A stretch of DNA of 64,000 nt from Clostridia bacterium (GTDB lineage Bacteria > Bacillota > Clostridia > Christensenellales > QALW01): positions 26,409-90,408 of the forward strand of contig JAFVVO010000043.1 of NCBI GenBank assembly GCA_017502165.1, in the 5' to 3' direction. The position numbers were made by a program, and so were the translations under genes. This document shows positions 4,905 through 45,676 of the stretch, in pieces. The notes under the pieces were generated by a model, which saw only the letters and a list, made by a program, of their open reading frames with translations, had not been told where the DNA came from and ran no database searches. Positions within the stretch are counted from its first letter, which is position 1; each line of letters opens with the position of its first letter.

Positions 4905-5021
4905 TCAGCCCTGCTTCTGCTTATGGCTCTTATCAGCGGAACAGATAACCATTACTTTACCGTGACGCTTGATGAGCTTGCATTTATCACACATGGGTTT
5001 TACACTAGGTCTAACTTTCAT
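4905..5021 (-). CDS. rpmJ: 50S ribosomal protein L36
   Basis: Hand-translated 38 aa: [38 protein letters not shown]. It is too short for the ORF track. Confidence 0.95.
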
Positions 5022-5034
5022 TACAATATCCTCC

Positions 5035-5256
5035 TCAGTTTTTACTGCGCCAAATGATTCGGCCCTTGGTCAAATCATAGGTGGAAATTTCTACTGTTAC
5101 CTTATCTCCGGGTAACACTTGAATATTGTTCATTCTAAGCTTGCCGGCGATATGCGCTAAAATCTTATGACCGTTTTCAAGTTCAACTACGAACTCAGCG
5201 TTCTTTTTAGATTCTAAAACTACGCCTTCAACTTCAATGACATCTTCCTTAGACAT
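5035..5256 (-). CDS. infA: Translation initiation factor IF-1
   Basis: 73 aa S1-like protein: [26 protein letters not shown]. Confidence 0.95.
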
Positions 5257-5548: not shown

Positions 5549-6310
5549 CTAAATTCTTACGTTCGGGTCGGTTATGATTATCGGTTCACCGTCAATAATC
5601 GCAACGGTGTTTTCGTAATGGGCGCTGGGCGCGCCGTCAAGGGTGACCGTGGTCCATCTGTCAGAGAGAACCGTTACCTTTTCGGTGCCTAAGTTTATCA
5701 TAGGCTCGATGGCAAGGGTCATTCCGTTGACTATTCTCGTGCCGTGGCCCGGAGCACCAAAGTTGGGTATTTCGGGAGATTCGTGAAGCTCCCTGCCTAC
5801 GCCGTGGCCCGTAAAATCACGCACGATGCCGTATCCGAACTGATTTATATATTCTTCTATCCCGTGAGAAACGTCAGAAATTCTGTATCCCACACGGGCA
5901 AAGCGCAATCCCTCAAAGAAGGACTGTTTAGTACGTTCAACTAACAGCTTTTTTTCCTCCGACGCCTCACCTACAATAAAGGTGCGCGCCATATCGGTGT
6001 GAAAGCCCTTCCAAAATACGCCTCCGTCAACGGAAACCAGGTCTCCCTCGCGGATAATTTTCTTTTTACTCGGTATTCCGTGAATAACCTGCTCGTTAAC
6101 CGAAATACACAAGGTATTGGGGAAGCCGTACATTCCTAAAAACGACGGCTTTGCGCCATTACTTATTATATACTTATATGCGATTTTGTCAAGTTCAAGC
6201 GTACTCATTCCCGGCTTAATGCTTTCACCGAGAAGCTCTAAGCAGGAGGCAAGAAGTCTTCCGCCCTCTGCCATAATTTTTAATGCGCTTTCATTCTTAA
6301 TGCAAAGCAT
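5549..6310 (-). CDS. map: Type I methionine aminopeptidase
   Basis: 253 aa with metal-ligand contexts (VSVDGG, HTDMARTF, FTGHGVG, LAIEPM). Confidence 0.95.
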   Translation of the reverse strand: MLCIKNESALKIMAEGGRLLASCLELLGESIKPGMSTLELDKIAYKYIISNGAKPSFLGMYGFPNTLCISVNEQVIHGIPSKKKIIREGDLVSVDGGVFWKGFHTDMARTFIVGEASEEKKLLVERTKQSFFEGLRFARVGYRISDVSHGIEEYINQFGYGIVRDFTGHGVGRELHESPEIPNFGAPGHGTRIVNGMTLAIEPMINLGTEKVTVLSDRWTTVTLDGAPSAHYENTVAIIDGEPIIITDPNVRI

Positions 6311-17383: not shown

Positions 17384-17589
17384 TTTTTTACCTCCTTTTA
17401 GTAGCTCAAATACACTCTACCGTGTGTGCCGCTTATAAAATTTTTAAGCAGCGGTGCATCTGGCTGTTCGTCTGATTTTCAGACAATTGTCCACGGAAAT
17501 TACCTGCATTATAGGAGCAGCAACCTTCCGCTTCATACCATTTACGCAAAAACATGCGCAGTTACTCCACCGCACAGAGCAACGTTTGA

Positions 17590-21793: not shown

Positions 21794-24094
21794 ATGCCAA
21801 AAACCTATGAGAAAAAGAAAAATCAGCGTCCTTACGGTTTGTACACAATAGTAACCGTTTTTTTGTTGTTTGCTGTTTTCTTCCTTATGGTAGGCTCGTT
21901 ATTTGTTTCGGCAGAAAACGATGCCTATGAAGACCTTCACGTGCAAACAAAACAAATTAAGGACGATCTGGTACTCCAGCTTATTTCCGACCGAGAGAAT
22001 CTTTCTACCATGGCAAACTTTGCCTCAAAGCTTTATAAGGACGGGGAAAGCTACGACCTTTTATTTGATTCCTTTAAGCCTATCGGTTTAATTGAAAACG
22101 TAGGTATTTTGACTCCCGAGAACGTTTTTATAACAAAGGCAGGCACCATTGACCTTTCGGACAAGATTTCTTTTGAAGAGGAAAAGGTTCGGGGCGCTTA
22201 CGTTAGCGGAAGAATAAAGGACTTAACCCGTGACAATTACGAAATTGTGCGCAGCGCCGTTCCCATTAAGGCAGACGGTCAGGTTATCGGTGTTCTTTAC
22301 GGCGTTATTAAGCTTGATACAATTGAGCAAAGATATGAACAAATGGCTAACGATATCGACGCTCAGCTTTTTGTTTACAGCAAAGATATCGGTGACCTTA
22401 TTATTGACAACGTGCACACAAAGCTTGGCAATATTTCGTTTTTGCAGGACCGCGAATATGCTCGCGGTTATTCCTACGAGCAAATAATATCGTCCGACAA
22501 AGGCTTTACGTCTTTTAAATCTGCCTACAGGGACGAGCAAGCTCACATGCACTTTTCCACTATTGAGGAATTGGGCTGGGTAATTGCCCTTGCAAGATAC
22601 GATTCCAACGTTTTTGCAACGGTATGGTCTCTTGCTCAAGTTCTGTTTACTGCATTTATTGCATTCCTCGTTGTTGTTGGTTCTTACGTCACCATACTGC
22701 TTACAAGTGAAAAGCACTTAGCTGAGGTAACGGACTGTGCAGCGGACATAAGAAAGCTTCTGCTTGATACCTCAGGCGGTGAAAACGCCATTTCTTTTGC
22801 ACTTAAACAGCTGTGTCAGTTTGCACGAGCCAGATCAACCATGCTTTTTGACGCTAACAGTGAAGAATTTCATTATCTTGCTCCCAAATTCATGGAAAAC
22901 ACCATTCCCGATGAAGAAAGAAATTATTTCCGAGGCGAGTTGCTTCTTTACGGAGCGGAAGTACATCAGACGACTAACTCAGCAGTTAACGTTTTAAGCA
23001 TTACACCTAACAAACACCTTTTGTTAACCAACCCCACGTTCTATGAATTCTTAAGAAAATATAAGATTAACAAGATTACCTGCTCTGCAACTGTTAACGC
23101 CACCAATCACGTTACTATTTTAGCGGCAGTTAACCCCAAACGGTTCCACCTGACGCGGTTGCTTGTTGAAAAAATTGCAGCGTGCTTCTCAATGGCGCTT
23201 TACAATAAGAACTATCTTAACCAGACCAAGCTTACCGCAACAACCGACTCTCTTACGGGAGCATTAAACCGCGTTGCGTACAAAGCCGACCTGTTAACTC
23301 TTGATGGTGAAAATGCTTCGGACTTTTCCTGCATTTACGTTGACGTTAACGAATTACACCTTATTAACAATACTCTTGGCCACGCCGCAGGCGACGAAAT
23401 GCTTATCTACGTTGCCAACACCTTAAAGGAAGTATTCTTCGGCCACAGTATTTACCGAATGGGCGGCGATGAATTCTTAGTGTTCTGCCGAAACGCCGAC
23501 CAAGAAACCGTAAAGAAAAATATCGAGTTTTTCGTTCAACAATTACAGCCGAAAAACTATCACGTGGCTATTGGTTATTCTTTCAGAACAAGAAATACTG
23601 ATACCGAAAGTATGGTAAAGGAAGCCGAGGTTCGTATGTACGAAGCAAAGGCTAAATACTATCAAAACAAAGAACAGCGCAAGACTGACTGGGTAGCTGA
23701 AAGCGAATACGTTCAGGTTAAAACGGGAATCCTTGAAATTGACGCTATGCTTTCGATATTAAAAGAAAGCTATAACGGCATTTACCGCGTTTCACTTAAC
23801 ACCGACAAGGCACACCGTATTTTAATGCCCGCGTATCTTAATTATAACGAAAACGAGGAACATTTTTCAAAGCTTTTCTCCAAATACGTTGCCGACTCCG
23901 TAGAGCCCGACTATCGCAGAGCTTTACTTAGCTTCTTAAATTACGAAGCCATCAAGCAACAGTTGCTTGATGGCAAAATCCCTAAAGCCACCTATAAAAA
24001 GCACAACGGAGAAAGGGTAACCTTAAGCGTTTACACGTTAGATGAAGCAGATGCTTCCGATTTCAACACCCTTTGGGTTTTTGCAAAAATGTGA
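21794..24094 (+). CDS. Membrane sensor diguanylate cyclase (TM - extracytoplasmic Cache-like region - TM - linker domain - GGDEF - C-terminal extension)
   Basis: 766 aa with TM segments near aa 14-38 and 275-300. The GGDEF domain has LTGALNRVAY, DVNELHLINNTLGHAAGDE and an intact GGDEF at 23462-23476. No RxxD I-site lies 5 aa upstream of the motif. Confidence 0.88.
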   Translation: MPKTYEKKKNQRPYGLYTIVTVFLLFAVFFLMVGSLFVSAENDAYEDLHVQTKQIKDDLVLQLISDRENLSTMANFASKLYKDGESYDLLFDSFKPIGLIENVGILTPENVFITKAGTIDLSDKISFEEEKVRGAYVSGRIKDLTRDNYEIVRSAVPIKADGQVIGVLYGVIKLDTIEQRYEQMANDIDAQLFVYSKDIGDLIIDNVHTKLGNISFLQDREYARGYSYEQIISSDKGFTSFKSAYRDEQAHMHFSTIEELGWVIALARYDSNVFATVWSLAQVLFTAFIAFLVVVGSYVTILLTSEKHLAEVTDCAADIRKLLLDTSGGENAISFALKQLCQFARARSTMLFDANSEEFHYLAPKFMENTIPDEERNYFRGELLLYGAEVHQTTNSAVNVLSITPNKHLLLTNPTFYEFLRKYKINKITCSATVNATNHVTILAAVNPKRFHLTRLLVEKIAACFSMALYNKNYLNQTKLTATTDSLTGALNRVAYKADLLTLDGENASDFSCIYVDVNELHLINNTLGHAAGDEMLIYVANTLKEVFFGHSIYRMGGDEFLVFCRNADQETVKKNIEFFVQQLQPKNYHVAIGYSFRTRNTDTESMVKEAEVRMYEAKAKYYQNKEQRKTDWVAESEYVQVKTGILEIDAMLSILKESYNGIYRVSLNTDKAHRILMPAYLNYNENEEHFSKLFSKYVADSVEPDYRRALLSFLNYEAIKQQLLDGKIPKATYKKHNGERVTLSVYTLDEADASDFNTLWVFAKM

Positions 24095-24101
24095 GTTTTT
24101 C

Positions 24102-24130
24102 TTGACAAAGACAAATCATTGTAATATACT
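24102..24130 (+). promoter_or_regulatory. Sigma-A promoter upstream of the riboswitch and EPS operon
   Basis: TTGACA (24102-24107), 17-nt spacer, TATACT (24125-24130). Confidence 0.6.
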
Positions 24131-24134
24131 GTCA

Positions 24135-24268
24135 ATATAAATATCGGCAAAACCGATGAAAATCGGCGACGCAAAGCAAAGAGGCTACGGTTTTATACTA
24201 TGCCAGTCCAGCTGCAATGATAAGAAGTCTTTGTTAAGGCATTCTATTGTTGCAGCTTTTTATTTTTC
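24135..24268 (+). promoter_or_regulatory. c-di-GMP-I (GEMM-I)-like riboswitch with intrinsic terminator as expression platform
   Basis: GGCAAA-ACCGAT-GAAA-ATCGG-C-GACGCAAAGC ... GGCTA..TATGCCAG-TCCAGCTGC matches the GEMM-I hallmarks (GCAAA, a GNRA-capped hairpin, GACGCAAAGC, GCCAG). It is followed by the stem AGCTGCAA / TTGCAGCT and TTTTTATTTTT. The left arm of that stem overlaps the 3' end of the aptamer. Confidence 0.72.
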
Positions 24269-24342
24269 AAATCAGAACTAGCACGTTTCGTATCAAAATT
24301 TTATATTATGTTAGCACACTAACGTAAGCGAGGTAAGAAAAA

Positions 24343-25188
24343 GTGACCAGTAATTTTATTGAAATTTTCAAAAATATTGCATCAAACAGCGATGTAGTAA
24401 ATGACGAAAATGCAATTTTCGAAAGAATTGAGGAAGCATTTGCTAACCGCGAATTCAAAACGCATCTTCAGTTTATAGTAAACAACAAAACCAAGGCGGT
24501 CTCTTCTGCGGAGGCTCTTTCCCGATGGGAAATTTCTGCGGACGAGATTGTTTCGCCCGGATTATATCTTCCCTTAATTGAAAAGGCAGGGCTCAGCGCT
24601 AAATTTGACTATTATATGTTTGAAAGCGTTTGCGCCAAGCTTGCCCAATGGAAAAATACCGAGTTTGGCTCGGTAACCGTTTCCTGCAACTTCTCAAGAA
24701 TAACTCTTTCGGAAAACGATTTCATCGAAACTGTTACAGCCATTGCAGATAAATATGATTTTGACAGAAAAAATCTGTTAATTGAAATTACCGAAAGCAC
24801 TATGGAAAGAAACGTTGAGGTTGCTCTGGATAACGTTGTGCGCGCAAAAGAACTCGGTTTCCGCATTGCTTTAGACGACGTTGGCAGCGGTTACACTTCA
24901 CTTATCTGTTTGTGCAAATATCCCGTTGACATTATTAAAATCGACAGAGAAGTGCTTCTATTAGCAAGTGAAACAAGAGGCAAAAAGCTTCTTCTTGGCA
25001 TTATTGCTTTATCACATTTTTTGAATCTCGAGGTTGTATGTGAAGGCGTTGAAACAAGTGAGCAAAACGACCTGGTTTCAAACAGTGATTGCGATTATAT
25101 TCAGGGCTGGTACTATTTTAAGGCGCTTGATGCAAAAAAGGCTGAAGAATGTGCCCGCGAATACGCTGAAAAGCTTGCAAAAAACTAA
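24343..25188 (+). CDS. Stand-alone EAL-domain c-di-GMP phosphodiesterase
   Basis: 281 aa, GTG start after GAGGT. EAL lies at 24511-24519 (AEALSRWE). Also has NFS, EITES, DDVGSGYTS, KIDRE, EGVET and QGWYY, so the full catalytic signature is present. Confidence 0.88.
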   Translation: MTSNFIEIFKNIASNSDVVNDENAIFERIEEAFANREFKTHLQFIVNNKTKAVSSAEALSRWEISADEIVSPGLYLPLIEKAGLSAKFDYYMFESVCAKLAQWKNTEFGSVTVSCNFSRITLSENDFIETVTAIADKYDFDRKNLLIEITESTMERNVEVALDNVVRAKELGFRIALDDVGSGYTSLICLCKYPVDIIKIDREVLLLASETRGKKLLLGIIALSHFLNLEVVCEGVETSEQNDLVSNSDCDYIQGWYYFKALDAKKAEECAREYAEKLAKN

Positions 25189-25209
25189 AACGCTTTTAAG
25201 GACGTTGTT

Positions 25210-25752
25210 ATGAATAAAGCATTTTCAAAAGATCTGTACCGTTATTACGGTGATAAAGGTGAATCTCTGCTTCAGAGGCTTTTGCGCCCCGTAGAGCTGA
25301 AATATATCGCTCTTTTCAGAAAGGCTAACGGTTGCCCTTTTGCTCCCCTGAAAGCATATTACACTCTGCGCCTTAAGCTGATGTCAAACAAAACCCATAT
25401 ACAGATTCCTGCAAGGACTCAAATAGGGGAAGGCTTTTATATCGGACACAGCGGCAGAGTGATTATTCACCCCGACGCTAAAATCGCCTCCAACGTCAAC
25501 GTGGGAACGGGTGTTACCATAGGGGCAGAAAACCGCGGAGAGCGCAAAGGCGCACCCACCCTTTGCGGAAACTGTTGGATTGGTACAAACTCGGTTATAG
25601 TAGGCAACGTTACCATAGGGGAAGACGTTATGGTTGCCCCCTTAACCTTTGTTAATTTTGACGTACCGCCACACAGCATAGTGGTTGGAAACCCCGCAAA
25701 AATAATAAGCAAAGAAGACGCTACAAAAGACTACGTACACAATAAAATCTGA
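25210..25752 (+). CDS. Hexapeptide-repeat (LbH) O-acetyltransferase, CysE/WbbJ-like
   Basis: Left-handed beta-helix repeats (IGEGFYIGHSGRVIIH, VGTGVTIG, IGTNSVIVGNVTIGEDVMV) and VVGNPAKII. Confidence 0.8.
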   Translation: MNKAFSKDLYRYYGDKGESLLQRLLRPVELKYIALFRKANGCPFAPLKAYYTLRLKLMSNKTHIQIPARTQIGEGFYIGHSGRVIIHPDAKIASNVNVGTGVTIGAENRGERKGAPTLCGNCWIGTNSVIVGNVTIGEDVMVAPLTFVNFDVPPHSIVVGNPAKIISKEDATKDYVHNKI

Positions 25753-25770
25753 TTTAAGGAGGCAATCGGG

Positions 25771-27270
25771 ATGGCAAAAAAAGATAACAGAATTAAATAT
25801 AATCTGTTGTCAGGCTTCGTATATCAAATTGTCCTGATTGTCCTTGGTTTTTTGCTTCCAAGACTGTATCTGGAAAATTTCGGCTCCGAGGTTAATGGTG
25901 TTTTATCTACCATAAAGCAGATTTTCGCATATATGACTCTGCTTGAAGCAGGAGTAGGTCTTGCAACCACCCAGGCGCTCTACAAGCCCGTTGCCGAAAA
26001 AGACCACGCAAAAACAAGCTCCATTATTTCGGCAACAAATAACTACTACGTTAAAATCGGCTTTATTTATTCGGCCATAGTCCTCGCTATCGCCTGTGTA
26101 TATTCCTTCATTATTCCAACGGGTATATCCTCTTGGGTTGTTTTCAGCCTAATAGTTTTAACCGCCTTACCCTCATTATTCAGCTACTTTATACAATTAA
26201 AATACAGAATACTGTTAGAAGTTGACGGCAGAAAGTACGTTATAACCAATTCCGAAACTATTTTGCAGCTTCTTGCCAACGCAGGAAAAATTCTCGTACT
26301 TCTTTTAACTGACAGCCTTATTCTCATTCAGCTTGTATATTGTATCTTATCTCTTATTCAGCTTGCTTACGTTTTCATTCACGCAAAACGCAGATACACT
26401 TGGCTCGATTTTAAGGCTGAGCCTGATTTTGAAGCTATTTCTCAGAGGAAATCCGTTCTTGTGCATCAGATTTCAGGAATGGTTTTCAATAATACCGACA
26501 TTTTATTGCTTTCCTTCTTATGTGATTTTAAGATCGTAAGCGTTTACACCATATACAACATTTTCTTCTCTCAAGTACAAACCTTTATAACTACTATTAC
26601 TTCCGGCTTCAGCTTTGCCTTAGGGCAAATGTTTCACACCGACAGAAAAAAGTTTATGCAGGTTTTTTCGGTTTACGAAACCTTTTACATAATGGGCACC
26701 TTTGTTATATATACTTTAATGGCTGTATTTCTGCTTCCCCTTATTCAGATTTACACAAAGGGAATTAACGACGCAGAATATACAAACGTATTTTTAGTGC
26801 TTCTGTTCGTTATTATGAATCTGTTAGCCAACGGAAAGCTTCCCGTTAACCACGTTATTGAGTTTTCGGGAGCATTTGAGAAAACACGTTGGCACGCCAT
26901 TGCAGAAATGGTGATTAACGTTACCGTTTCAATCGTAGCAATTCTTCTGTGGGGCATTTGCGGCGCAATTCTCGGCACTATCGTCGCCCTTTTATTCAGA
27001 AGCTCTATAATGATTTACTATTCCAACAAAAAAATTCTTCAGCGAAGCATTTTTGAAACGTACAAGCTGTGGATTGTTAACGGAGGCGTGTTTGCCTGCA
27101 TAATGGCTATCTTCTTTGTTGATAGCTTCAGCGGTCTCTCCTTTTTGGAGCTTTTACTGCAAGGAATTATTCACACCGCGTGGATTATCCCTTTGTATCT
27201 TGTGGCAAATCTTATTTTCTTTAGAAGTGCCTTTAAGAATTTCCTTGTTCTTTGGAGGGCGAGAAAATGA
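25771..27270 (+). CDS. wzx: Polysaccharide flippase (Wzx / MOP superfamily)
   Basis: 499 aa with roughly 12-14 TM helices, located in a glycan locus. Confidence 0.75.
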   Translation: MAKKDNRIKYNLLSGFVYQIVLIVLGFLLPRLYLENFGSEVNGVLSTIKQIFAYMTLLEAGVGLATTQALYKPVAEKDHAKTSSIISATNNYYVKIGFIYSAIVLAIACVYSFIIPTGISSWVVFSLIVLTALPSLFSYFIQLKYRILLEVDGRKYVITNSETILQLLANAGKILVLLLTDSLILIQLVYCILSLIQLAYVFIHAKRRYTWLDFKAEPDFEAISQRKSVLVHQISGMVFNNTDILLLSFLCDFKIVSVYTIYNIFFSQVQTFITTITSGFSFALGQMFHTDRKKFMQVFSVYETFYIMGTFVIYTLMAVFLLPLIQIYTKGINDAEYTNVFLVLLFVIMNLLANGKLPVNHVIEFSGAFEKTRWHAIAEMVINVTVSIVAILLWGICGAILGTIVALLFRSSIMIYYSNKKILQRSIFETYKLWIVNGGVFACIMAIFFVDSFSGLSFLELLLQGIIHTAWIIPLYLVANLIFFRSAFKNFLVLWRARK

Positions 27271-27998
27271 TTCCCAAAGTCATTCATTACTGTTGGTTCG
27301 GCAAAGGCGAAATGCCGAAGCTTGCTAAAAAATGTATTAAAAGCTGGAAAAAATTCTGCCCCGATTACGAAATAATTTGTTGGAACGAAGAAAATTTCGA
27401 TTTTTCTCAAAACCTTTACGCCCGTCAGGCATACGAAGCGGGCAAGTGGGCTTTTGTAAGCGATTATGCCCGCCTTAAAGTTATTAACGATTTCGGCGGA
27501 ATATATCTCGACACTGACGTTGAGCTTCTTAAGCCTATAGATTTTTTGCTTTCTTACAAAGGTTTTATGGGTTTTGACGAAAAGGGCATAGTTGCAACGG
27601 GGCTTGGCTTTGGTGCAGAAAAGGAAAACCCAATCGTCAACGAATTTTTGAAGGATTACGACGAAATACCCTTTATTCTGCCTGACGGAAGCTTTGACCT
27701 TACCCCTTGTCCTGACAGAAACACCGCCGCATTAAAACGGCTTGGAATGGACACTGAAAACACAAATCAGACTTTTCTTGATACGGTTTTTCTTCCGAGA
27801 GAATATCTTTGCCCTATGGATTATTACACGGGCAAGAAAACTATAACGAACAACACAGTTTCAATACATCATTATTCTGCCTCGTGGACCTCGTCGGTTA
27901 CAAAACGAACAACTGCTATTAAAAGAATAATCGGTGTTAAACTATACGATAAGCTTTACGGAAAATTTTTGCATAAACTGAAATGGTTGGAGTGGTAA
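27267..27998 (+). CDS. Glycosyltransferase family 32-like (Gly_transf_sug / capsular synthesis type)
   Basis: IPKVIHYCWFG, DYARLKVINDFGGIYLDTDVE (DxD). ATG 27267 overlaps the wzx stop (ATGA). Confidence 0.8.
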   Translation: MIPKVIHYCWFGKGEMPKLAKKCIKSWKKFCPDYEIICWNEENFDFSQNLYARQAYEAGKWAFVSDYARLKVINDFGGIYLDTDVELLKPIDFLLSYKGFMGFDEKGIVATGLGFGAEKENPIVNEFLKDYDEIPFILPDGSFDLTPCPDRNTAALKRLGMDTENTNQTFLDTVFLPREYLCPMDYYTGKKTITNNTVSIHHYSASWTSSVTKRTTAIKRIIGVKLYDKLYGKFLHKLKWLEW

Positions 27999-28000
27999 TA

Positions 28001-29533
28001 ATGCCCGAGGAATTGTTTGCTAAACTTAAAAAGAATATTCTCCCCCAATGGAAAGCCTGCTTTTTTGCAGCAATTATCATTGGGTTAATTGCCCACGCAT
28101 ATAAAATTACAAATTGGCTTCCTAATTGGGATTCACTTGTTTTCCGTTATGACGAGCAAAATATGCTTTCCCTGGGCCGTTGGTTTTTGCCCGTTGCCTC
28201 AGCCCCAAGCTCCTTTTACGATTTGCCTTGGCTTGCGGGCTTTATATCCATTTTGTTTCACGCCCTCGGCGCAGTCGTTATCTGCCGAATCTTTAACGTT
28301 AAAAAGAACTTAACGGCAATTTTAATCGGTGGCGCAGTAGTTTCATTTCCTACCGTTACTTCCGTATTGCTTTACAACTACGTTGCCGATGCCTATGCGT
28401 TATCATTTCTTTTTGCCTGCCTGTCGGCGTTTTTGTTAACTAAAGAAAAGCCTAATCATATTGCTGCAACGATTTTACTCGCTTTATCCGTAGGAATTTA
28501 TCAGGCTTACGTTACCGTAACGGTAATGCTTCTTCTTTGTTTTCTTGTGCTTGAAGCCTTAAAAAAAGAGGTTACCGCAAAGGAGCTTTTAATCAAATGC
28601 GGAAAATTCTTGCTTACGGGCATTGCAGGAATGGCTGTTTATTATCTGGTTTTAACCGTTACCCTGAAGCTTACTAATACCGAGCTTTTAGATTATCAGG
28701 GATTAAGTGATGCAACAAGCCTTGCAGGCTTAGATATTTTAGGCTCACTATACGTTATCAAAGAATCCTTTGTTAATTATTTCTTTGATTTTTCCGCAGG
28801 TATAAGCCTTTTTAACGTACTTAACTTACTGTTTTTAAGTGCAACGGTGGTTTTGTATCTGCTTGAAATTATAAAAAACAAGCTTCCCTTAGGAAAGATT
28901 TTACTTGTTTTACTTTTTGCCCTTTTATTGCCCTTTGGCGCAAGTATTCTTGCTTTTATTAACAGCAGTATTGATTACCACAATTTAATGAAAATGGGCT
29001 TCTTCGTGTTTTACCTGTTCTTCATTCTTCTTTTTGAAAAATTCGAAGCAGGCAAAAATAAAGCAAGCCTTATTAAGCCTTGGCTTGTGCTTATATTAAC
29101 AAGCCTGCTGATATTTAATCAGATAGTTATTGCTAACGTAAGCTATCACAAAATAAATATTGCTTACGAAAAATCCTACGGCGTGCTGATTCGCATAGCA
29201 GATAGAATAGAGCAAACCGAGGGCAGTGAAAACTGCAGTAAACTTTTAGTTGTAGGCTCCCTTGAAAACAGTGAGGGCTACAGTTCTTTGGTTCACCTTG
29301 ATATGACCGGCACCACCGACGGCTTTATTCTTCGTGCAGACGATGAAATAGTAGGTCAGAGCGTTTTATGCAGTGCCTTGAACGACTACTGTGAAACCAA
29401 CTACACCTTTTTAGCAGGTGACGAAAAAGCAGAGGTTCTTTCTAAAATAGACGAAAGCTCCTTAGGAATTTGGCCTGCAAAAAATTCCGTCTTGGTTTTT
29501 GAAGACGTTATCATTGTTAAACTTGGCGATTAG
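28001..29533 (+). CDS. Polytopic membrane protein, GtrII/GT-C-like glucosyltransferase-domain protein
   Basis: About 11 TM helices plus a soluble C-terminal domain. The N-terminal HAYKITNWLPNWDSL motif resembles the Glucos_trans_II family. The call is tentative. Confidence 0.5.
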   Translation: MPEELFAKLKKNILPQWKACFFAAIIIGLIAHAYKITNWLPNWDSLVFRYDEQNMLSLGRWFLPVASAPSSFYDLPWLAGFISILFHALGAVVICRIFNVKKNLTAILIGGAVVSFPTVTSVLLYNYVADAYALSFLFACLSAFLLTKEKPNHIAATILLALSVGIYQAYVTVTVMLLLCFLVLEALKKEVTAKELLIKCGKFLLTGIAGMAVYYLVLTVTLKLTNTELLDYQGLSDATSLAGLDILGSLYVIKESFVNYFFDFSAGISLFNVLNLLFLSATVVLYLLEIIKNKLPLGKILLVLLFALLLPFGASILAFINSSIDYHNLMKMGFFVFYLFFILLFEKFEAGKNKASLIKPWLVLILTSLLIFNQIVIANVSYHKINIAYEKSYGVLIRIADRIEQTEGSENCSKLLVVGSLENSEGYSSLVHLDMTGTTDGFILRADDEIVGQSVLCSALNDYCETNYTFLAGDEKAEVLSKIDESSLGIWPAKNSVLVFEDVIIVKLGD

Positions 29534-29544
29534 AGGTGTGAAAA

Positions 29545-30396
29545 ATGGTATATTTTTGTGCGGACGATTACGGCATAGCCAAGCAATGCAATAACCGCAT
29601 AGAAAAATGCCTTGATGACGGCGTATTAAACAAGGTAAGCGTTTTGCCTAACGGTGAAACGGAAAACTTTAAGCTTCGTCTTGAAGAAAAAGGTGCAAAA
29701 ATTTCCCTGCATCTTAATTTGGTAGAGGGGTATCCCTTATCAAGCCCGCAAGACGTTCCCTTGCTTATAACCCCGCAAGGCACTTTCAAACATTCGTTTG
29801 TAGGATTGTTGTTCTTATCTCTTTCAAAAAACAGAAGAGATTTTGAAAAACAGATATATAAAGAAATACAAAAGCAGCTGGAATTTTGGAAAACAAACTT
29901 GGGCGATGCACCCCTTTGGCTTGACAGCCACCAGCACGTGCATATGATTCCCCTTGTTTTCAGAACCTTGCTTAAAGCGCTTGAAGACGAAAAAATTAAG
30001 GTAGAATATCTTCGTATTCCTTCCGAGCCGATTTTACCGTATCTGCTTACACCGAGCTTATATCTTAAGCTGCGTCCCATAAACCTTATAAAGCAATGGC
30101 TGTTGAATTTTTTAGCATTAGTAAACAGAAAAGCTCTTAAAAAATCAAAAATTCCTTACGCTTACTTTATGGGCGTTGCCTTTTCAGGCTTTTTAACCAA
30201 GGAAAAAATTGAAAAATTGCTTCCTAAATACTTAAAACTTGCCCAAATGCACAATAAAGACGTGGAAATTACTCTGCACCCCGGATTTTTGGAAGCGGGT
30301 GAAAGCCTTTCCATCGGTTGCAGGGCAGATTTTGAGAAATTTTATTTTTCATCAGGGCGCAAACAAGAATTCGACACCCTGTTAAATCTTAAATAA
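29545..30396 (+). CDS. YdjC/ChbG-family carbohydrate deacetylase
   Basis: CADDYGI, LHLNLVEG and DSHQHVHM motifs. Confidence 0.8.
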   Translation: MVYFCADDYGIAKQCNNRIEKCLDDGVLNKVSVLPNGETENFKLRLEEKGAKISLHLNLVEGYPLSSPQDVPLLITPQGTFKHSFVGLLFLSLSKNRRDFEKQIYKEIQKQLEFWKTNLGDAPLWLDSHQHVHMIPLVFRTLLKALEDEKIKVEYLRIPSEPILPYLLTPSLYLKLRPINLIKQWLLNFLALVNRKALKKSKIPYAYFMGVAFSGFLTKEKIEKLLPKYLKLAQMHNKDVEITLHPGFLEAGESLSIGCRADFEKFYFSSGRKQEFDTLLNLK

Positions 30397-30423
30397 TCAT
30401 TATGTTGAAAGAAGGTTCTGTAA

Positions 30424-31104
30424 ATGCCCTATATTGACAGTGAAAAGGTTGATGAGAAGACTCGGGCAAAATTAGCTGCATTGATTGAAAAATCCTATTC
30501 GTCATATTGGATGAAAAAAAGACTTTTCGACATTTTCTTTGCGACGATTATTCTGCTTATGTTTTTGCCCTTAATGATTATAATTGCCATTGTAATCTGT
30601 ATTGACGATCCAAGCGCAGGTCCATTCTTTAAGCAAAAACGAGTAGGCCGCCACGGGAAAGAATTTTATATGTATAAATTCCGCACAATGCGTCCCAACG
30701 CAGAAGCGCTTCTTGAAGAGTTAAAAGACAAAAACGAAATGGACGGCCCCGTATTCAAAATTACCGACGATCCAAGAATAACCAGGGTAGGTAAATTTTT
30801 GCGCAAGCTTTCTTTGGACGAACTTATGCAGTTCTTCAATGTTTTTAAGGGCGATATGACCTTGGTTGGTCCCCGTCCGCCGCTGCCAAGAGAAGTAGAA
30901 TTTTACACAGATTATCAAAAGCTCCGCCTGCACGTTACTCCCGGGTTAACTTGCACCTGGCAGATTTCAAAAAACAGAAACGACATACCCTTTGAACAGT
31001 GGGTTGAAATGGATTTGGATTACATACAAAACCGCACCTTCCCGGGTGACATTTTAATTATGCTCAAAACGCCTATCGTTATGATAAGCGCAACGGGCAG
31101 ATAA
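30424..31104 (+). CDS. Polyprenyl-phosphate sugar-1-phosphate transferase (initiating bacterial sugar transferase, WbaP/EpsL type)
   Basis: KRLFDIFFA, PFFKQKRVGRHGKEFYMYKFRTM, DELMQFFNVFKGDMTLVGPRP. Confidence 0.9.
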   Translation: MPYIDSEKVDEKTRAKLAALIEKSYSSYWMKKRLFDIFFATIILLMFLPLMIIIAIVICIDDPSAGPFFKQKRVGRHGKEFYMYKFRTMRPNAEALLEELKDKNEMDGPVFKITDDPRITRVGKFLRKLSLDELMQFFNVFKGDMTLVGPRPPLPREVEFYTDYQKLRLHVTPGLTCTWQISKNRNDIPFEQWVEMDLDYIQNRTFPGDILIMLKTPIVMISATGR

Positions 31105-31126
31105 ACTCTTTTTAGGAGAAATAAAA

Positions 31127-32257
31127 ATGAAAGTTGCAATGATTGGCCATAAGGTTGTCCCCTCAAGACGAGGAGGCATAGAAAACGTGCTTACAAGCCT
31201 TTGTCCGCTTTTAGCCGATAAGGATATAGACGTAACCTGCTACAACCGTTCAAGTGATAAGGTTGAAAACGAGTTTGTTTCTATGGTTCAAAACAACAAA
31301 TTCGGCAAAATAACCTTAAAAAATGCGTGGACAATTAACAAAAAAGGTCTCTCCGCTATGGTTGCTTCCTTTACCGCAGCAATCAGCGCATCTTTCTCTG
31401 ATTACGATATTATTCACTTTCACGCCGAAGGTCCCTGCGCTGCCATGCCCTTGCCAAAGCTTTTCGGCAAAAAGCTGGTAGCTACCGTTCACGGTCTTGA
31501 CTGGCAAAGAGAAAAGTGGGGCAACAGCTTTGCTTCCAAATACATAAAATTCGGCGAACGCGTTATGGTAAGATGCGCCGACGAAATCATCGTTTTAAGC
31601 CAAAGCGCAAAAGAATACTTCAAGGAAACCTACGGACGCGAAACGGTACTTATTCATAACGGAATTAACCGTCCAAGTAAAAAAGAAGCAGATATAATTA
31701 CAAAGAAGTACGGTCTTAACAAAAACGAATATATCTGTCTTGTTTCCAGGCTTACCGCCGAAAAAGGCGTGCATTATCTACTTGACGCCTTTAACAGAAT
31801 TAAAACAGACAAAAAGCTTGTTATTGCAGGGGACACAAGTGACACAGACCAATACGTTGCTATGCTTAAGGAAATGGCTAAGGATAACCCAAACATTATC
31901 TTTACGGGTTTTGTTTCAGGTGACGTTCTTAAGGAAATTTACAGTAACGCATACCTTGTAACTCTTCCTTCGGACATTGAAGGTATGTCCCTGAGCTTGT
32001 TGGAAGCCCTTGCTTTCGGTAACGCGGTGTTATGCTCGGATATTCCCGAAAACACCTTGGTTACTGAGGACAGAGCAATACTGTTTGAAAAAAGCAACGT
32101 GGACGACTTAACAAGCAAGCTGCAGGAAATGTGTGATAATGAAGCGTTGGTAACGAACCTTAAACAAGGTGTTGACGATTTTATTCTCGGCAAATATTCT
32201 TGGCTTGACGTTGCAACGGAAACAGCAACTCTTTATAAAAAGGTTTTAGGAAACTAA
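31127..32257 (+). CDS. GT4 glycosyltransferase with DUF1972-type N-terminus (WchF/RgpA-like)
   Basis: MKVAMIGHKVVPSRRGGIENV and a C-terminal EGMSLSLLEALAFG. Confidence 0.8.
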   Translation: MKVAMIGHKVVPSRRGGIENVLTSLCPLLADKDIDVTCYNRSSDKVENEFVSMVQNNKFGKITLKNAWTINKKGLSAMVASFTAAISASFSDYDIIHFHAEGPCAAMPLPKLFGKKLVATVHGLDWQREKWGNSFASKYIKFGERVMVRCADEIIVLSQSAKEYFKETYGRETVLIHNGINRPSKKEADIITKKYGLNKNEYICLVSRLTAEKGVHYLLDAFNRIKTDKKLVIAGDTSDTDQYVAMLKEMAKDNPNIIFTGFVSGDVLKEIYSNAYLVTLPSDIEGMSLSLLEALAFGNAVLCSDIPENTLVTEDRAILFEKSNVDDLTSKLQEMCDNEALVTNLKQGVDDFILGKYSWLDVATETATLYKKVLGN

Positions 32258-32275
32258 CGGAAAGGAATTTTATTT

Positions 32276-33247
32276 ATGAAACAAGAAAAGCTTACTACAA
32301 AGCCCAGAAAACGAGCCCGTGCAATATTTCTGTTTATAATCAGCTTGCTTTCTGTATTGGTTGCCTTTACTATTGCGGTAGTTGGCTGCAACTACGTTGA
32401 AAATCAAAATTTTAAGGAAACCTTTTACTGTGTGAGCAGTCTTAAGGTTCACAACAAAATAAGAATAGTTCAGCTTTCCGATCTGCACTCGTCCTATTAC
32501 GGTGCTGAAAACGCGAAGTTGCTGGACAGAGTTACTAAATTAAACCCTGATATAATTCTGTTAACGGGTGATTGCATTGATTCCGATTCCGTTGACGATG
32601 CAGGTACCGTAACTCTGTGCGCCAAGTTTACGGATATTGCCCCTACCTATTATATTTACGGCAACAACGAAGTGGAAAAATATTATTACGGCGCTCTTAC
32701 TCAGGAAACTTTAGATAAAAAGTTTGGCTTTACTGACGAAACCCGTCAACCCTCCAAGCTTCTTGATATGACGGATGCCTTGGCTGAAAAGTTAAAAAAG
32801 GCAGGGGTAAAGGTTCTCAAAAATTCCTTTGATACCATTACCATCGGAACCACCAACGTTGATATTTACGGTGTGCTTACTTCGAACCCCTCGGCTTTTT
32901 GGTCCTATGCGGGAGACAGCTTCGACGAGTTTATTTATTCTAACGAAAACAACCTTAAGATTACCGCTATTCACGAGCCTACCGTTTTTGAAGAGTATGC
33001 GCCTGATTCATGGGGCGACTTGATGCTCGCAGGTCACACCCACGGCGGTCACGCTCGACTTCCCATTGTCGGCCCCGTTTACACTCACGAAGACGGTATG
33101 CTGCCTGCAAAAACAGGCCATTACGTTTACGGCCGATACGACGTGCAGGGAAGACCTCTTATTATTTCTTCCGGTCTGGAAAACAAGAGCTTCTTCAGAA
33201 TTAACAATCCTCCCGAAATTGTGGTTGTAGACGTAAATAAATTTTAA
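32276..33247 (+). CDS. Membrane-anchored calcineurin-like metallophosphoesterase
   Basis: N-terminal TM segment, then QLSDLHS, LLTGD, GNNE and GHTHGG motifs. Confidence 0.8.
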   Translation: MKQEKLTTKPRKRARAIFLFIISLLSVLVAFTIAVVGCNYVENQNFKETFYCVSSLKVHNKIRIVQLSDLHSSYYGAENAKLLDRVTKLNPDIILLTGDCIDSDSVDDAGTVTLCAKFTDIAPTYYIYGNNEVEKYYYGALTQETLDKKFGFTDETRQPSKLLDMTDALAEKLKKAGVKVLKNSFDTITIGTTNVDIYGVLTSNPSAFWSYAGDSFDEFIYSNENNLKITAIHEPTVFEEYAPDSWGDLMLAGHTHGGHARLPIVGPVYTHEDGMLPAKTGHYVYGRYDVQGRPLIISSGLENKSFFRINNPPEIVVVDVNKF

Positions 33248-34647: not shown

Positions 34648-36531
34648 ATGAAAAATTTCAAAATTATGCGATATTTGAAAAAGCTTTTGCCAATCATTGT
34701 GATTTTATGCGTTGTTGCTACCTACGGAATATACGTTAAGCTGAACGATTCCAACACCTACGTAGCTTCCGAGGTTATTCATTACAATGACCCGGCCGCC
34801 GAGCAGGGCTTAACGCCCACCGGCTCGAAATTAGACGTTAATGAAATTAAATCTTCCGCTATTTTGTCAAAGGTTGTTGACAGAATGGGCCTTACGGGCA
34901 TTTACTCAGTTGACAGTCTTATTTCAAGAATTTCCATTACTCCTTTACCCGACGAGGATAAGCTTGCGCAAAAGGAAGCCAAGCTTGAAGAGGGTGAGGA
35001 ATACGTTTACGAGCCCAGCACTTACATTGTTTCATTTACCGCCACAAACGACGAGGGCTCCGTTTTTGCAAGAACTATTCTTGACGAAACTCTTGACGTG
35101 TATTTTGCCGAATACAGTCAGAAATACGTTAACGTAGCTCCTGCTAAAAACATTATAGACAACACCGAAAGTGCAAATTACGACTATATTGAAATGGTTG
35201 AGCTTATTGACGTTGGTATTGACGAAACCTTAACCACCTTATATCAGCGTATGGACCAGAATCCATACTACCGCTCAACTAAAACGGGCGCTTCCTTCAG
35301 TGATTTGGCGGACGATTTTAATTACCTTCGTTCCGTTAAGCTTTCATCAATGTTCTCCAAGATTTATAAATACCAAATCACAAAAAACAAGACTCTTCTT
35401 GTTTCAGACTATAAAACAAGAATTGATAATAACGTTATATTAAACGCCAAAGAAGAAAGCATCGTTAAAGACACCGTTGCCGTTATTGACGCTTACGTTG
35501 AAAAAATGAGAGAGTCAGGCAACACGAACATTACTTACGAATATATTCTTGATAATCTTCACGACGGCAATTTAGTTGACGGTAACGGCAATCCTCTTTT
35601 CGCCGGTGACCAGACCGTAACCTATGACGAGCTTATTTTCAGCTGGAGAGACCACAAGGAAACAAAAGAGTATTCCGTTATTGATTCAGCATACTGCAAT
35701 TATCTTATTAACACCTTTACCGCCTGCACAGGCGCTTGCGATCCTGAGCACAGAGAATGTGCTACTTCAAACAAGACCTGCACGGAAATTCATAACGAAA
35801 ACTACCAGCAGTTAAAGACCGAGCTTGACGAAGAAATCAACACTCTTATATCAGATTTAACCGAGCTTTACAACTTAACTATGAGCACCAACGAAGAATA
35901 CAACCAATATCTTGGCGCAAGCTACATTTCAGTTTTGTCCTCAGCTTCTGTTAAGCCCAGTATTAACGTTATTCTTTACACTCTTATTGCGTTCTTCTTC
36001 CTTATTGTTCTCTGCTGCGGCGGCGCAATAGTTTTAGCAAGAGTGGCTGATATTGTAAACTACGTTTTCTATACCGACCATCTTACAAATCTTTATAACC
36101 GTGCTTACTTTGATAAGTATCTTAAATCAATGGACAAAAAGCTTCTTGACGACGGAACGGTTTACTGCATAATTGAAATTTCAAACCTTGCCGCAATTAA
36201 CGCTGAATTCTCCCGTCAGGTTGGTGACGAGGTAATTAAAACCTTTACCTCATACTTAAAAGAAGCCTTTGGTAAAACTAACGCGGAATATATTTATAAC
36301 GGCAACGGCAGCTTCGTTGTTCTGGCACAAGATGCCGACTATATTACCGCTGAAGACATTTTAAGACTTTTCCGTATCAGACTTGATGAGCGTGACGTTT
36401 TCGAAGATTTCGCCATTGAATACAAGATTGGTATTGCCGAAAGCTTTAAGGAAAATAAAACTGCAAGAAAACTGCTTTCCGAAGCAATTAAGAGCAAAAA
36501 GGACTTCGTAGCCGAAATTATTGAAAAATAA
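34648..36531 (+). CDS. Wzz/PCP-like polysaccharide co-polymerase fused to a C-terminal degenerate GGDEF domain
   Basis: TM1 (LLPIIVILCVVATYGIYV), a Wzz-like start (TYVASEVIHYNDP), a coiled-coil segment and TM2 (INVILYTLIAFFFLIVLCCGGAIVLA). Then DHLTNLYNRAYF...IEISNLAAINAEFSRQVGDE...GNGSF (36301-36315), where GG[DE]EF would be expected. Confidence 0.7.
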   Translation: MKNFKIMRYLKKLLPIIVILCVVATYGIYVKLNDSNTYVASEVIHYNDPAAEQGLTPTGSKLDVNEIKSSAILSKVVDRMGLTGIYSVDSLISRISITPLPDEDKLAQKEAKLEEGEEYVYEPSTYIVSFTATNDEGSVFARTILDETLDVYFAEYSQKYVNVAPAKNIIDNTESANYDYIEMVELIDVGIDETLTTLYQRMDQNPYYRSTKTGASFSDLADDFNYLRSVKLSSMFSKIYKYQITKNKTLLVSDYKTRIDNNVILNAKEESIVKDTVAVIDAYVEKMRESGNTNITYEYILDNLHDGNLVDGNGNPLFAGDQTVTYDELIFSWRDHKETKEYSVIDSAYCNYLINTFTACTGACDPEHRECATSNKTCTEIHNENYQQLKTELDEEINTLISDLTELYNLTMSTNEEYNQYLGASYISVLSSASVKPSINVILYTLIAFFFLIVLCCGGAIVLARVADIVNYVFYTDHLTNLYNRAYFDKYLKSMDKKLLDDGTVYCIIEISNLAAINAEFSRQVGDEVIKTFTSYLKEAFGKTNAEYIYNGNGSFVVLAQDADYITAEDILRLFRIRLDERDVFEDFAIEYKIGIAESFKENKTARKLLSEAIKSKKDFVAEIIEK

Positions 36532-42260: not shown

Positions 42261-43622
42261 ATGCACATATTTGAAAACCCACTCGTAATAATAGGAATTT
42301 TAGCTTTTTGCTTTCTTGCGCTGGTTTCAGTTGCCATTTATTTTGCCGTTAAAGGCGTAAAAACCGCAAGCGGCCACGCAGAAAACGACTTTTCAACAAT
42401 AAACAAGCTTGAAAACGAATTCAGAAAATTAGGTAAGCACCGTGCAGACAGATGGGTGATGTACGTTAGCGTTTCATCTGCTACACCGCCAAGTGATTAT
42501 GCTGAGCCAAACGTTTTTTCCGAAATCAAACGCTCTCTGCTTTCTATGTTTGCAAACGAATACGATTATATTGCAATTTATGATGATAACAGCTACGTTG
42601 TACTTGCAAACCGTGAAAAAGCAGAAATAGAAGAAACAATAGAAATCTGTCAGGCAGAATTAAATAAATGTCTTTTAAGCTATAGCGCTCTTAACGTGGT
42701 AAACGTAAGAATAGGCTCCCATTGTGCCGACGGCTCTCACGTTACCTTTGACGAAGCAATTTCCCGTGCAAAACAAGCTTGTTTGCTTGCAAAAAATAAA
42801 AATGTTTTCTATTCTCAGTGGGATATTACCAGCGGAAAGGCCTTGGAAAAAAAGATTAAAATTGAAAACAATATTGAAAAAGAAATTGATAACAACCGTT
42901 TCTTTTTAGAATATCAGCCGGTTTTAGATGCCAAAACCAAGAAGATTATAGGCGCTGAGGTTTTATCCCGCTTAAATTCCGAAAGTGACGGAGTTTTAAC
43001 CCCCGGCAGCTTCTTATCCGCGTTAGAATCCGTAGGCATTAACGAAAAATTCGACTATTATATTTTTGAAAAGAACTGTAAGTGGATTTCCAACGACAAA
43101 CCTCAGCGGGAAGGCTACAAATATACCATAAACTTTTCCCGTTCTACTTTGAGTGAGCCTGAATTTGTAAACAAAATTATAAACATTGCCGAAAAATACG
43201 ATTTGAAATTTTCCTGCCTTGCGGTTGAAGTGCTTGAAGATAAAAACGTTACCGGCGAAGCAAAAAAACAAATGATTGATAACCTTTCTGCGCTTAAAGA
43301 AAAAGGTGTTTCCATTTTGCTTGACGATTTTGGCAGCGGTTACACAACCTTTGGAGATTTACAAAGCTTTGACGTTTCTATAGTAAAAATTGACAAATCC
43401 ATAACCCAGAACGCCGTTACCGAAACCGGCTTTATCATACTTAAAAATATTATTCAGACTGCCCACGATATAGGCTTTAAGACGGTTTGCGAGGGTGTTG
43501 AAAACAAGGAGCATGAGGAAGCTGCAATAAAAGCAGAATGTGATATGCTTCAAGGCTTCTACTATTACAAGCCTATGCCCGTTACAATGCTTGAAAAACT
43601 GTTTAACAATAATAAAAATTAG
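42261..43622 (+). CDS. Membrane-anchored degenerate-GGDEF / EAL (EVL) c-di-GMP phosphodiesterase
   Basis: One N-terminal TM segment. The GGDEF-like region has YDDNSY in place of GGDEF. The EAL domain has EVL (42957-42965), INFS, EVLED, DDFGSGYTT, KIDKS, EGVEN and QGFYY. Confidence 0.8.
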   Translation: MHIFENPLVIIGILAFCFLALVSVAIYFAVKGVKTASGHAENDFSTINKLENEFRKLGKHRADRWVMYVSVSSATPPSDYAEPNVFSEIKRSLLSMFANEYDYIAIYDDNSYVVLANREKAEIEETIEICQAELNKCLLSYSALNVVNVRIGSHCADGSHVTFDEAISRAKQACLLAKNKNVFYSQWDITSGKALEKKIKIENNIEKEIDNNRFFLEYQPVLDAKTKKIIGAEVLSRLNSESDGVLTPGSFLSALESVGINEKFDYYIFEKNCKWISNDKPQREGYKYTINFSRSTLSEPEFVNKIINIAEKYDLKFSCLAVEVLEDKNVTGEAKKQMIDNLSALKEKGVSILLDDFGSGYTTFGDLQSFDVSIVKIDKSITQNAVTETGFIILKNIIQTAHDIGFKTVCEGVENKEHEEAAIKAECDMLQGFYYYKPMPVTMLEKLFNNNKN

Positions 43623-45648: not shown

Positions 45649-45676
45649 ACCCGAAGTTAATATCTTCGGGTTTTTA
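45649..45676 (+). terminator. Rho-independent terminator ending the Wzx/Wzy operon
   Basis: ACCCGAAG-TTAATAT-CTTCGGGT followed by TTTT. Confidence 0.8.

Follow-up and report, generated by a model that had tools for sequence, protein, structure and literature searches.

Here we describe a 64-kb stretch of DNA from a Clostridia bacterium (contig JAFVVO010000043.1), hereafter the window, in which the leader of a large exopolysaccharide (EPS) operon carries the aptamer of a class I cyclic di-GMP (c-di-GMP) riboswitch. Considering all the results presented below, the best explanation of the whole is a class I riboswitch acting as a transcriptional ON switch of the polysaccharide operon, a reading to which we give a probability of roughly 0.78. 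The aptamer is placed by family membership, and the direction of the switch is suggested by the way in which aptamer and terminator compete for the same nucleotides and by the conservation of both folds in related loci.

A class I c-di-GMP aptamer in the leader of the EPS operon

The whole window was compared with all Rfam families at their curated thresholds (cmscan). RF01051 (c-di-GMP-I/GEMM-I) matched at 24136-24219 on the forward strand with 60.7 bits, against a gathering score of 35 (E 2.1e-9), covering model positions 1-87 of 87, and this was its sole match in the 64 kb. An initial annotation, made from the letters of the window, had proposed a GEMM-I element at this place and had named the covariance-model comparison beforehand as the decisive check; the outcome was clearly in its favour. 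By family membership, the element is a genuine class I c-di-GMP riboswitch aptamer. It lies in sense orientation in a 5' leader, between a conserved promoter and the EAL-domain gene that opens the EPS operon, and the leader comprises the following features.

24102-24130, forward strand: sigma-70-type promoter TTGACA-17-TATACT (TTGACA at 24102-24107, TATACT at 24125-24130), an 11/12 match
24136-24219, forward strand: c-di-GMP-I (GEMM-I) aptamer, from the full-length RF01051 match and its pair map
24210-24257 and 24258-24267, forward strand: expression platform, a 21-bp intrinsic terminator hairpin and its U-tract UUUUAUUUUU, from minimum free energy folds
24330-24345, forward strand: Shine-Dalgarno (SD) sequence GAGG (24330-24333) and GTG start (24343) of the EAL gene, read from the sequence; the N-terminus aligns with orthologs starting MSNK...

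Once the pairs of the model were mapped onto the window, the first stem (P2) spanned 24147-24172, with G24147-C24172 and C24148-G24171 followed by CCGAU/AUCGG at 24153-24166, and was capped by a GAAA tetraloop of the GNRA type (24158-24161). The second stem (P3) spanned 24175-24213 and contained a tetraloop-receptor-like internal loop, GCUACG...CUAUGC, which we take to be a likeness of the canonical receptor motif CCUAAG/UAUGG. The conserved blocks that the initial annotation had read in the leader, GGCAAAACCGAUGAAAAUCGGCGACGCAAAGC...GGCUA...UAUGCCAGUCCAGCUGC, were all recovered. According to the model alignment, the positions equivalent to the ligand contacts G20, A47 and C92 of Vc2, the aptamer of Vibrio cholerae, are G24146, A24173 and C24215; here we take model column 11 to be Vc2 G20, an assignment that we checked by the identical spacing of 27 nucleotides (nt) between the G20 and A47 equivalents. 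In the Vc2 structures, G20 recognises G-alpha, A47 makes a contact and C92 pairs with G-beta (PMC6140456; PMC5888326).

The window element shares with Vc2 and the RF01051 consensus the two-stem aptamer, the GNRA tetraloop, the receptor-like internal loop, the conserved GGCAAA and GACGCAAAGC blocks, and the three contact residues at their proper spacing. On the other hand, its second stem is about 3 nt shorter, its receptor reads CUACG instead of the consensus CUAAG, and two modelled pairs at the base of P3 are non-canonical in the window family (A-A and A-C in almost all orthologs). The genetic context differs as well, since Vc2 regulates tfoY whereas the window element precedes an EAL gene and an EPS operon. 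We also noticed a hairpin specific to the window, AUCGG/CCGAU (24143-24157), that may compete with the first stem in partial transcripts; it is absent from the orthologs and we judged it incidental.

The promoter, which agrees with the one given by the initial annotation, was the top-scoring site of a 2-kb promoter scan. Transcription is predicted to start near 24137, about 9 nt 5' of G24146.

The terminator reuses the last nucleotides of the aptamer

The terminator stem AGCUGCAA.../...UUGCAGCU and its U-tract, pointed out by the initial annotation, are real, and at 21 bp the stem is longer than had been thought. Its free energy is -22.6 kcal/mol. The 5' arm, AGCUGCAAUGAUA, begins within the aptamer with AGCUGC, in line with the earlier statement that the last aptamer nucleotides are reused by the terminator: the shared positions are 24210-24213, the 3' strand of the P3 base, together with C24215. 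Nucleotides 24210-24213 can pair either with 24175-24178, in the aptamer, or with 24254-24257, in the terminator. A simple terminator scan gave no call at this site because the long interrupted stem exceeds the loop and stem limits of the scan; it was folding that found the hairpin.

All four G-C pairs at the terminator base come from the six shared nucleotides (the 3' strand of the P3 base and the C92 equivalent). When AGCU was withheld, the energy of the terminator fell from -22.6 to -13.4 kcal/mol, and to -7.4 kcal/mol when AGCUGC was withheld, while the stem that was left ended 4-6 nt short of the U-tract. Folding of the full leader gave -38.1 kcal/mol with the terminator and -28.3 kcal/mol with the aptamer enforced. 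Since the leader prefers the terminator fold, its default state would be OFF, and read-through would need capture of the ligand during transcription; switching would presumably be under kinetic control, as is usual for transcriptional riboswitches. The leader contains no separate anti-terminator element. Aptamer and terminator being mutually exclusive, the aptamer itself would therefore be the anti-terminator.

Both folds are conserved in related loci

Verbatim occurrences of the window EAL protein were found only in metagenome assemblies. Its homologs number in the hundreds at 55-64% identity, and the few that carry a source name are metagenome-assembled genomes (MAGs) of Oscillospiraceae. 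A scan of species-representative genomes yielded 80 loci with an EAL homolog, all in MAGs (Clostridia, Acutalibacteraceae, Oscillospiraceae and the like), and about 35 of the 80 share the gene order of the window (GGDEF, EAL, acetyltransferase, 499-aa protein, glycosyltransferase (GT), GtrII, YdjC, priming transferase...). A GEMM-I regular expression applied to the 700 nt upstream of these 80 loci found the aptamer motif at 32 of them, mostly some 160-190 nt 5' of the EAL gene, and an Rfam scan of 18 loci negative for the expression found RF01051 in one only (L045). Among distant EAL homologs (at most 55% identity), the riboswitch is mostly absent.

The window and 30 orthologous leaders were then assembled into one alignment of 31 leaders (A2). 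Of the orthologous leaders, 30/30 keep the -35 box together with the TCATTGTnATAtACT region. In these 30, the aptamer pairs are formed in 87.5% of cells, against 6-47% in slid controls, and three pairs of the first stem show compensatory changes, on both sides, in 16 cells in all; none of 500 shuffles reached 16, and the slid controls gave 0-2. The terminator pairs are formed in 92.5% of cells (38-61% in slid controls), five of them with changes on both sides. Given no hint, RNAalifold returned the terminator in full together with the first stem and the upper part of the second, whose base it left open, a consensus that, as modelled, is the ligand-free, terminated state. Both alternative structures are maintained across the orthologous leaders.

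The riboswitch is most likely an ON switch

The initial annotation had proposed an ON switch. From the nucleotides shared by aptamer and terminator, the retention of both folds in the 30 orthologous leaders, and a design that resembles a known ON switch, we infer the same: ON is the most likely direction of switching, and by leader anatomy and modelled folds we consider it probable. The known switch is the pilM GEMM-Ib riboswitch of Geobacter metallireducens, in which the 3' strand of the aptamer likewise lies within the terminator, the two folds are mutually exclusive and the ligand prevents termination (PMC9262584). It differs from the window element in sensing cyclic GMP-AMP (cGAMP), with A at position 20 where the window has G, and also in host phylum and regulated genes. 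Similarly, Bc2 of Bacillus thuringiensis, whose class I aptamer lies in the 5' untranslated region of a Firmicute gene, works as an ON switch by anti-termination, so that the gene is repressed by default and released at high c-di-GMP (PMC4933901). Bc2 acts on one gene only, for a collagen adhesin, whereas the window switch precedes an operon of 19 genes, c-di-GMP phosphodiesterases among them.

In the mechanism that we propose, transcription would begin at the promoter at 24102-24130 or arrive by read-through from the upstream cyclase gene, and the aptamer (24136-24219) would be transcribed first. In the absence of ligand, both the junction and the base of the second stem would be weak; as soon as RNA polymerase has made the downstream arm, the 21-bp terminator would capture AGCUGC and stop the enzyme before the EAL gene. 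When c-di-GMP is bound, through G24146, A24173 and C24215, the six shared nucleotides would be locked in the aptamer, and the terminator, deprived of its four basal G-C pairs and standing 4-6 nt away from the U-tract, would allow read-through into the operon of about 21 kb. High c-di-GMP would thus lead to polysaccharide synthesis and to the production of two phosphodiesterases that lower c-di-GMP again. Since these would be induced along with the EPS genes, the response would be self-limiting.

Several points weigh against this explanation. First, enforcing only the pairs modelled by Rfam leaves room for a truncated hairpin (24214-24253, -13.4 kcal/mol), and the size of the ligand effect, and with it the dynamic range, is therefore uncertain. 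Second, class I riboswitches of Clostridioides difficile are uniformly OFF switches (PMC6200980), and ON is therefore not the default for the class. Third, the leaders are close to one another (79% mean column identity) and hardly vary in the second stem and at the terminator base, parts for which there is thus little covariation evidence; for the terminator, moreover, the shuffle controls were not extreme. Fourth, a closing P1 helix, formed by the 5' leader with nucleotides after C92, was sought and is not claimed: the window allows at most the 4-bp UAUC/GAUA (24142-24145 with 24219-24222), and in the orthologs of alignment A2 a shifted register is needed or the pairs are lost, with no consistent covariation. 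Fifth, five orthologous loci of the same synteny (L011, L028, L031, L032 and L034) have no aptamer, which is therefore dispensable in some lineages. Finally, it is from sequence and modelling that we infer ligand binding and switching at this locus.

In three of the five loci (L011, L028 and L034), the GGDEF and EAL genes are separated by a short stretch of unrelated sequence. In L031 (around 5000-5052 of that locus) aptamer and terminator have been lost cleanly and the promoter is retained, with its -35 box and the TCATTGTnATAtACT region. L032 (around 5750-5990) retains the terminator, and about 55 nt replace most of the aptamer; when this substitute leader was compared with the Rfam families at E values up to 10, only chance-level matches were returned.

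Among the alternatives, the one that survives best is that the aptamer is genuine but belongs to an OFF switch, or that the hairpin is a constitutive attenuator or the terminator of the cyclase gene, with little effect of the ligand. The thermodynamic dominance of the terminator would fit this, as would the truncated hairpin that outlasts aptamer folding, the precedent of C. difficile, the loci from which the aptamer is missing, and the fact that the cyclase gene has no other terminator. An OFF switch, however, requires a ligand-free anti-terminator that aptamer folding disrupts, of which there is none here, and the 5' arm of the terminator is itself part of the aptamer. Furthermore, the sharing concerns precisely the four basal G-C pairs, on which termination critically depends, and about 30 species have kept the aptamer with its ligand-contact positions as well as a dedicated promoter, which would not be expected of a relic. 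We therefore regard an OFF switch or a mere attenuator as unlikely.

It is harder still to believe that control is mainly translational or exerted through mRNA stability, for example by the 9-bp hairpin (24306-24327) that stands directly 5' of the SD sequence in the window, given that this hairpin excludes the SD sequence and that the 75-nt spacer between terminator and SD sequence is unconserved among the orthologs whereas the terminator is conserved. Neither the sequence nor the structure of the spacer is kept, the hairpin included, and the sole conserved feature is GAGG/GGAG before the start codon. A conserved second regulator or sequestering hairpin between terminator and SD sequence was sought among the orthologs and none was found.

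C-di-GMP is the expected ligand

Because the window aptamer has G24146 at the position of Vc2 G20, c-di-GMP is its expected ligand. This position is not the same throughout the family: it is A in 25 of the 31 aligned leaders and G in the other 6, including the window. A at this position is the mark of GEMM-Ib, and the window does not carry it. As an observation in its own right, the natural G20/A20 polymorphism occurs within one conserved operon (loci L005-L057, column 11 of alignment A2).

The prevalence of A might suggest that the aptamer senses 3',3'-cGAMP or is bispecific, in the manner of GEMM-Ib, rather than being specific for c-di-GMP. The G20A mutant of Vc2 binds both c-di-GMP and cGAMP, and bispecificity has been described for natural variants with A20, one of them from Clostridium beijerinckii (PMC6140456). 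However, wild-type Vc2, with G20, discriminates against cGAMP (PMC6140456), and the window's own aptamer is of this G type. The adjacent cyclases speak for c-di-GMP as well. We applied to the neighbouring cyclase only the criterion for Hypr GGDEF enzymes, namely Ser at the Asp348 position, associated with cGAMP production (PMC6456294). At the window locus and at the 25 orthologous loci with a readable motif, the adjacent cyclase has GHxxGD...GGDEF with Asp, not the Ser of the Hypr type, and this Asp is found in G-type and A-type loci alike. The regulated genes, EAL and EPS, are those of classic c-di-GMP biology. Taking canonical Asp cyclases and regulated genes together, c-di-GMP would be expected as the physiological signal of both leader types, and a cGAMP-sensing or bispecific aptamer appears very unlikely to us.

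Relation to known c-di-GMP riboswitches

That riboswitches can control genes of c-di-GMP turnover has been known since 2008. GEMM elements upstream of diguanylate cyclase and phosphodiesterase genes are documented, and this association helped to identify the ligand of GEMM-I (PMC3971182; PMC7266159). The window element is a well-conserved but ordinary new example of this long-established class of RNA switches, in which class I ON switches were already known, and it leaves our understanding of the class unchanged. Also close to it are the class I riboswitches of C. difficile (Cd1/Cdi-1-3 and others), which share with it the aptamer class, the Clostridia as hosts and control by transcription termination, but which have been reported as uniformly OFF, controlling flagella, proteases and small proteins, with class II taking the ON role (PMC6200980, PMC11477304). 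A likely class I ON switch in Clostridia stands in contrast to these.

Our literature search returned no description of this locus or of c-di-GMP riboswitches in these gut Clostridia, in which c-di-GMP signalling is essentially unstudied. Through the present analysis, a large surface-polysaccharide locus of uncultured Clostridia from gut and rumen, related to Acutalibacteraceae and Oscillospiraceae, gains an annotated regulatory input. The annotation predicts that c-di-GMP would induce matrix or capsule production at the RNA level, within limits set by the co-induced phosphodiesterases. In addition, the roughly 30 orthologous leaders, with their G/A variation and natural deletion variants, make a ready panel for studies of specificity and switching.

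The regulated operon and the upstream cyclase

The genes on both sides of the riboswitch are listed below.

21794-24094, forward strand: diguanylate cyclase gene, 766 aa (Pfam GGDEF 69.4 bits; weak dCache_1 match)
24343-25188, forward strand: predicted stand-alone EAL c-di-GMP phosphodiesterase, 281 aa, the first regulated gene (Pfam EAL 194.5 bits; NCBIfam phosphodiesterase families)
25210-45600, forward strand: 18 further co-directional genes (open reading frame list, Pfam, synteny)
34648-36531, forward strand: within these, a 627-aa protein with two transmembrane (TM) helices and a degenerate C-terminal GGDEF domain (Pfam GGDEF 48.6 bits)
42261-43622, forward strand: also within these, a predicted second EAL phosphodiesterase, 453 aa (Pfam EAL 194.3 bits)
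45650-45675, forward strand: operon-end intrinsic terminator, CCCGAAG-7 nt-CUUCGGG then UUUUU, read from the sequence

The statement of the initial annotation that an EAL gene heads the EPS operon is accurate, as polysaccharide-synthesis genes follow it. Together they form a run of 19 tightly packed co-directional genes (24343-45600, gaps of at most 37 nt), which by spacing and orientation probably make one transcript; a strong terminator closes the run, and the next gene begins 199 nt after the last of the 19. The 18 genes after the first encode a hexapeptide acetyltransferase, a DXD glycosyltransferase, GtrII, YdjC, a Bac_transf priming transferase, two GT4 and four GT2 glycosyltransferases, a metallophosphoesterase, a Wzy_C polymerase-like protein, an acyltransferase-3, two unassigned membrane-type proteins, the 627-aa protein and the second EAL protein. 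As judged from its gene content, this is a Wzy-type polysaccharide cluster. Across species, the EPS proteins are 75-92% identical, compared with 55-62% for the cyclase and the phosphodiesterase (loci L005-L044 against window 21794-33247), and the signalling proteins thus appear to evolve faster than the polysaccharide machinery they would control.

In the first EAL protein the catalytic motifs are all present (EALSR, N116, EITE, DDVGSGYTS, KID, EGVE, QG), and the corresponding EALxR, N, ExxE, DDxGxGYxS, KxD, EGVE and QG are invariant columns in an alignment of 24 homologous sequences. The second EAL protein, 36% identical to the first, has an N-terminal TM helix and an unassigned domain of about 170 aa, and its motifs are intact (EVLSR, an EVL variant; NFSR, EVLE, DDFGSGYT, KIDK, EGVE, QG). 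The initial annotation had seen in the first EAL gene a negative feedback on the signal. This is plausible because the protein keeps every catalytic motif, but it is incomplete, for the transcript also carries the second intact EAL gene and the degenerate GGDEF gene, and the feedback would therefore be richer than first proposed. Positive control of the EPS genes by c-di-GMP, the other half of that proposal, would stand; its label of feed-forward was loose, plain positive control being what was meant.

The first regulated gene takes other forms in some related loci. In L016, L022 and L057 the riboswitch lies 280-340 nt 5' of the EAL homology, and the interval encodes an N-terminal transmembrane-helix extension of the EAL protein, so the first regulated gene there would be a membrane-anchored variant. 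In L045, RF01051 immediately precedes the gene of an EAL protein that, much like the second EAL protein of the window, is extended at its N-terminus over a long stretch (TM helix and unassigned domain).

The 627-aa protein has GNGSF in place of GGDEF and no RxxD I-site, as read from its translation and a pairwise alignment to the upstream cyclase, and its two TM helices flank an extracytoplasmic region of about 400 aa. It is a candidate nucleotide-binding or sensing regulator of polysaccharide synthesis or polymerisation, and its topology alone gives the impression of a polysaccharide co-polymerase. Pfam searches (E up to 1) and NCBIfam gave nothing usable for its N-terminal 470 aa or for the 499-aa and 452-aa proteins.

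The cyclase has an N-terminal TM/Cache-like region and a GGDEF domain at aa 482-621. Its translation shows RMGGDEF intact and the base-specifying Asp of GHxxGD present, and the RxxD I-site is absent. About 35 related loci have an ortholog in the corresponding upstream position. Beyond the GGDEF domain, some 145 aa (aa ~622-766; window 23660-24094) form a C-terminal extension that matched no Pfam family; its sequence, which includes GIYRVSL.TDKA.RILMPAYL.YNENEEHFS…TLWVFAK, is strongly conserved in orthologs with translated C-termini. As the initial annotation had remarked, this GGDEF gene lacks its own terminator: only 7 nt separate the stop codon from the -35 box, and this interval contains none. 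The riboswitch terminator would therefore also end cyclase transcripts at low c-di-GMP.

A bolder reading, which we put forward tentatively and think rather improbable, is that cyclase, riboswitch-terminator and phosphodiesterase with EPS genes constitute a c-di-GMP pulse circuit complete in itself. The cyclase gene would have no terminator but that of the riboswitch, the antagonistic enzymes would be co-transcribed only at high c-di-GMP, and the lineage, with G in 6 leaders and A in 25, the deletion in L031 and the replacement in L032, would amount to a natural experiment. If this were true, with A-type leaders responding to c-di-GMP in vivo or the G/A exchange altering the set-point or specificity of the same operon, it would inform the evolution of GEMM-I specificity outside Geobacter.

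Apart from the riboswitch, the Rfam comparison gave a second match in the window, to the S10-Clostridia ribosomal-protein leader (RF03136) at 17468-17544 on the reverse strand; this match, which fits a Clostridia origin of the window, is borderline at 35.7 bits against a gathering score of 35.1.

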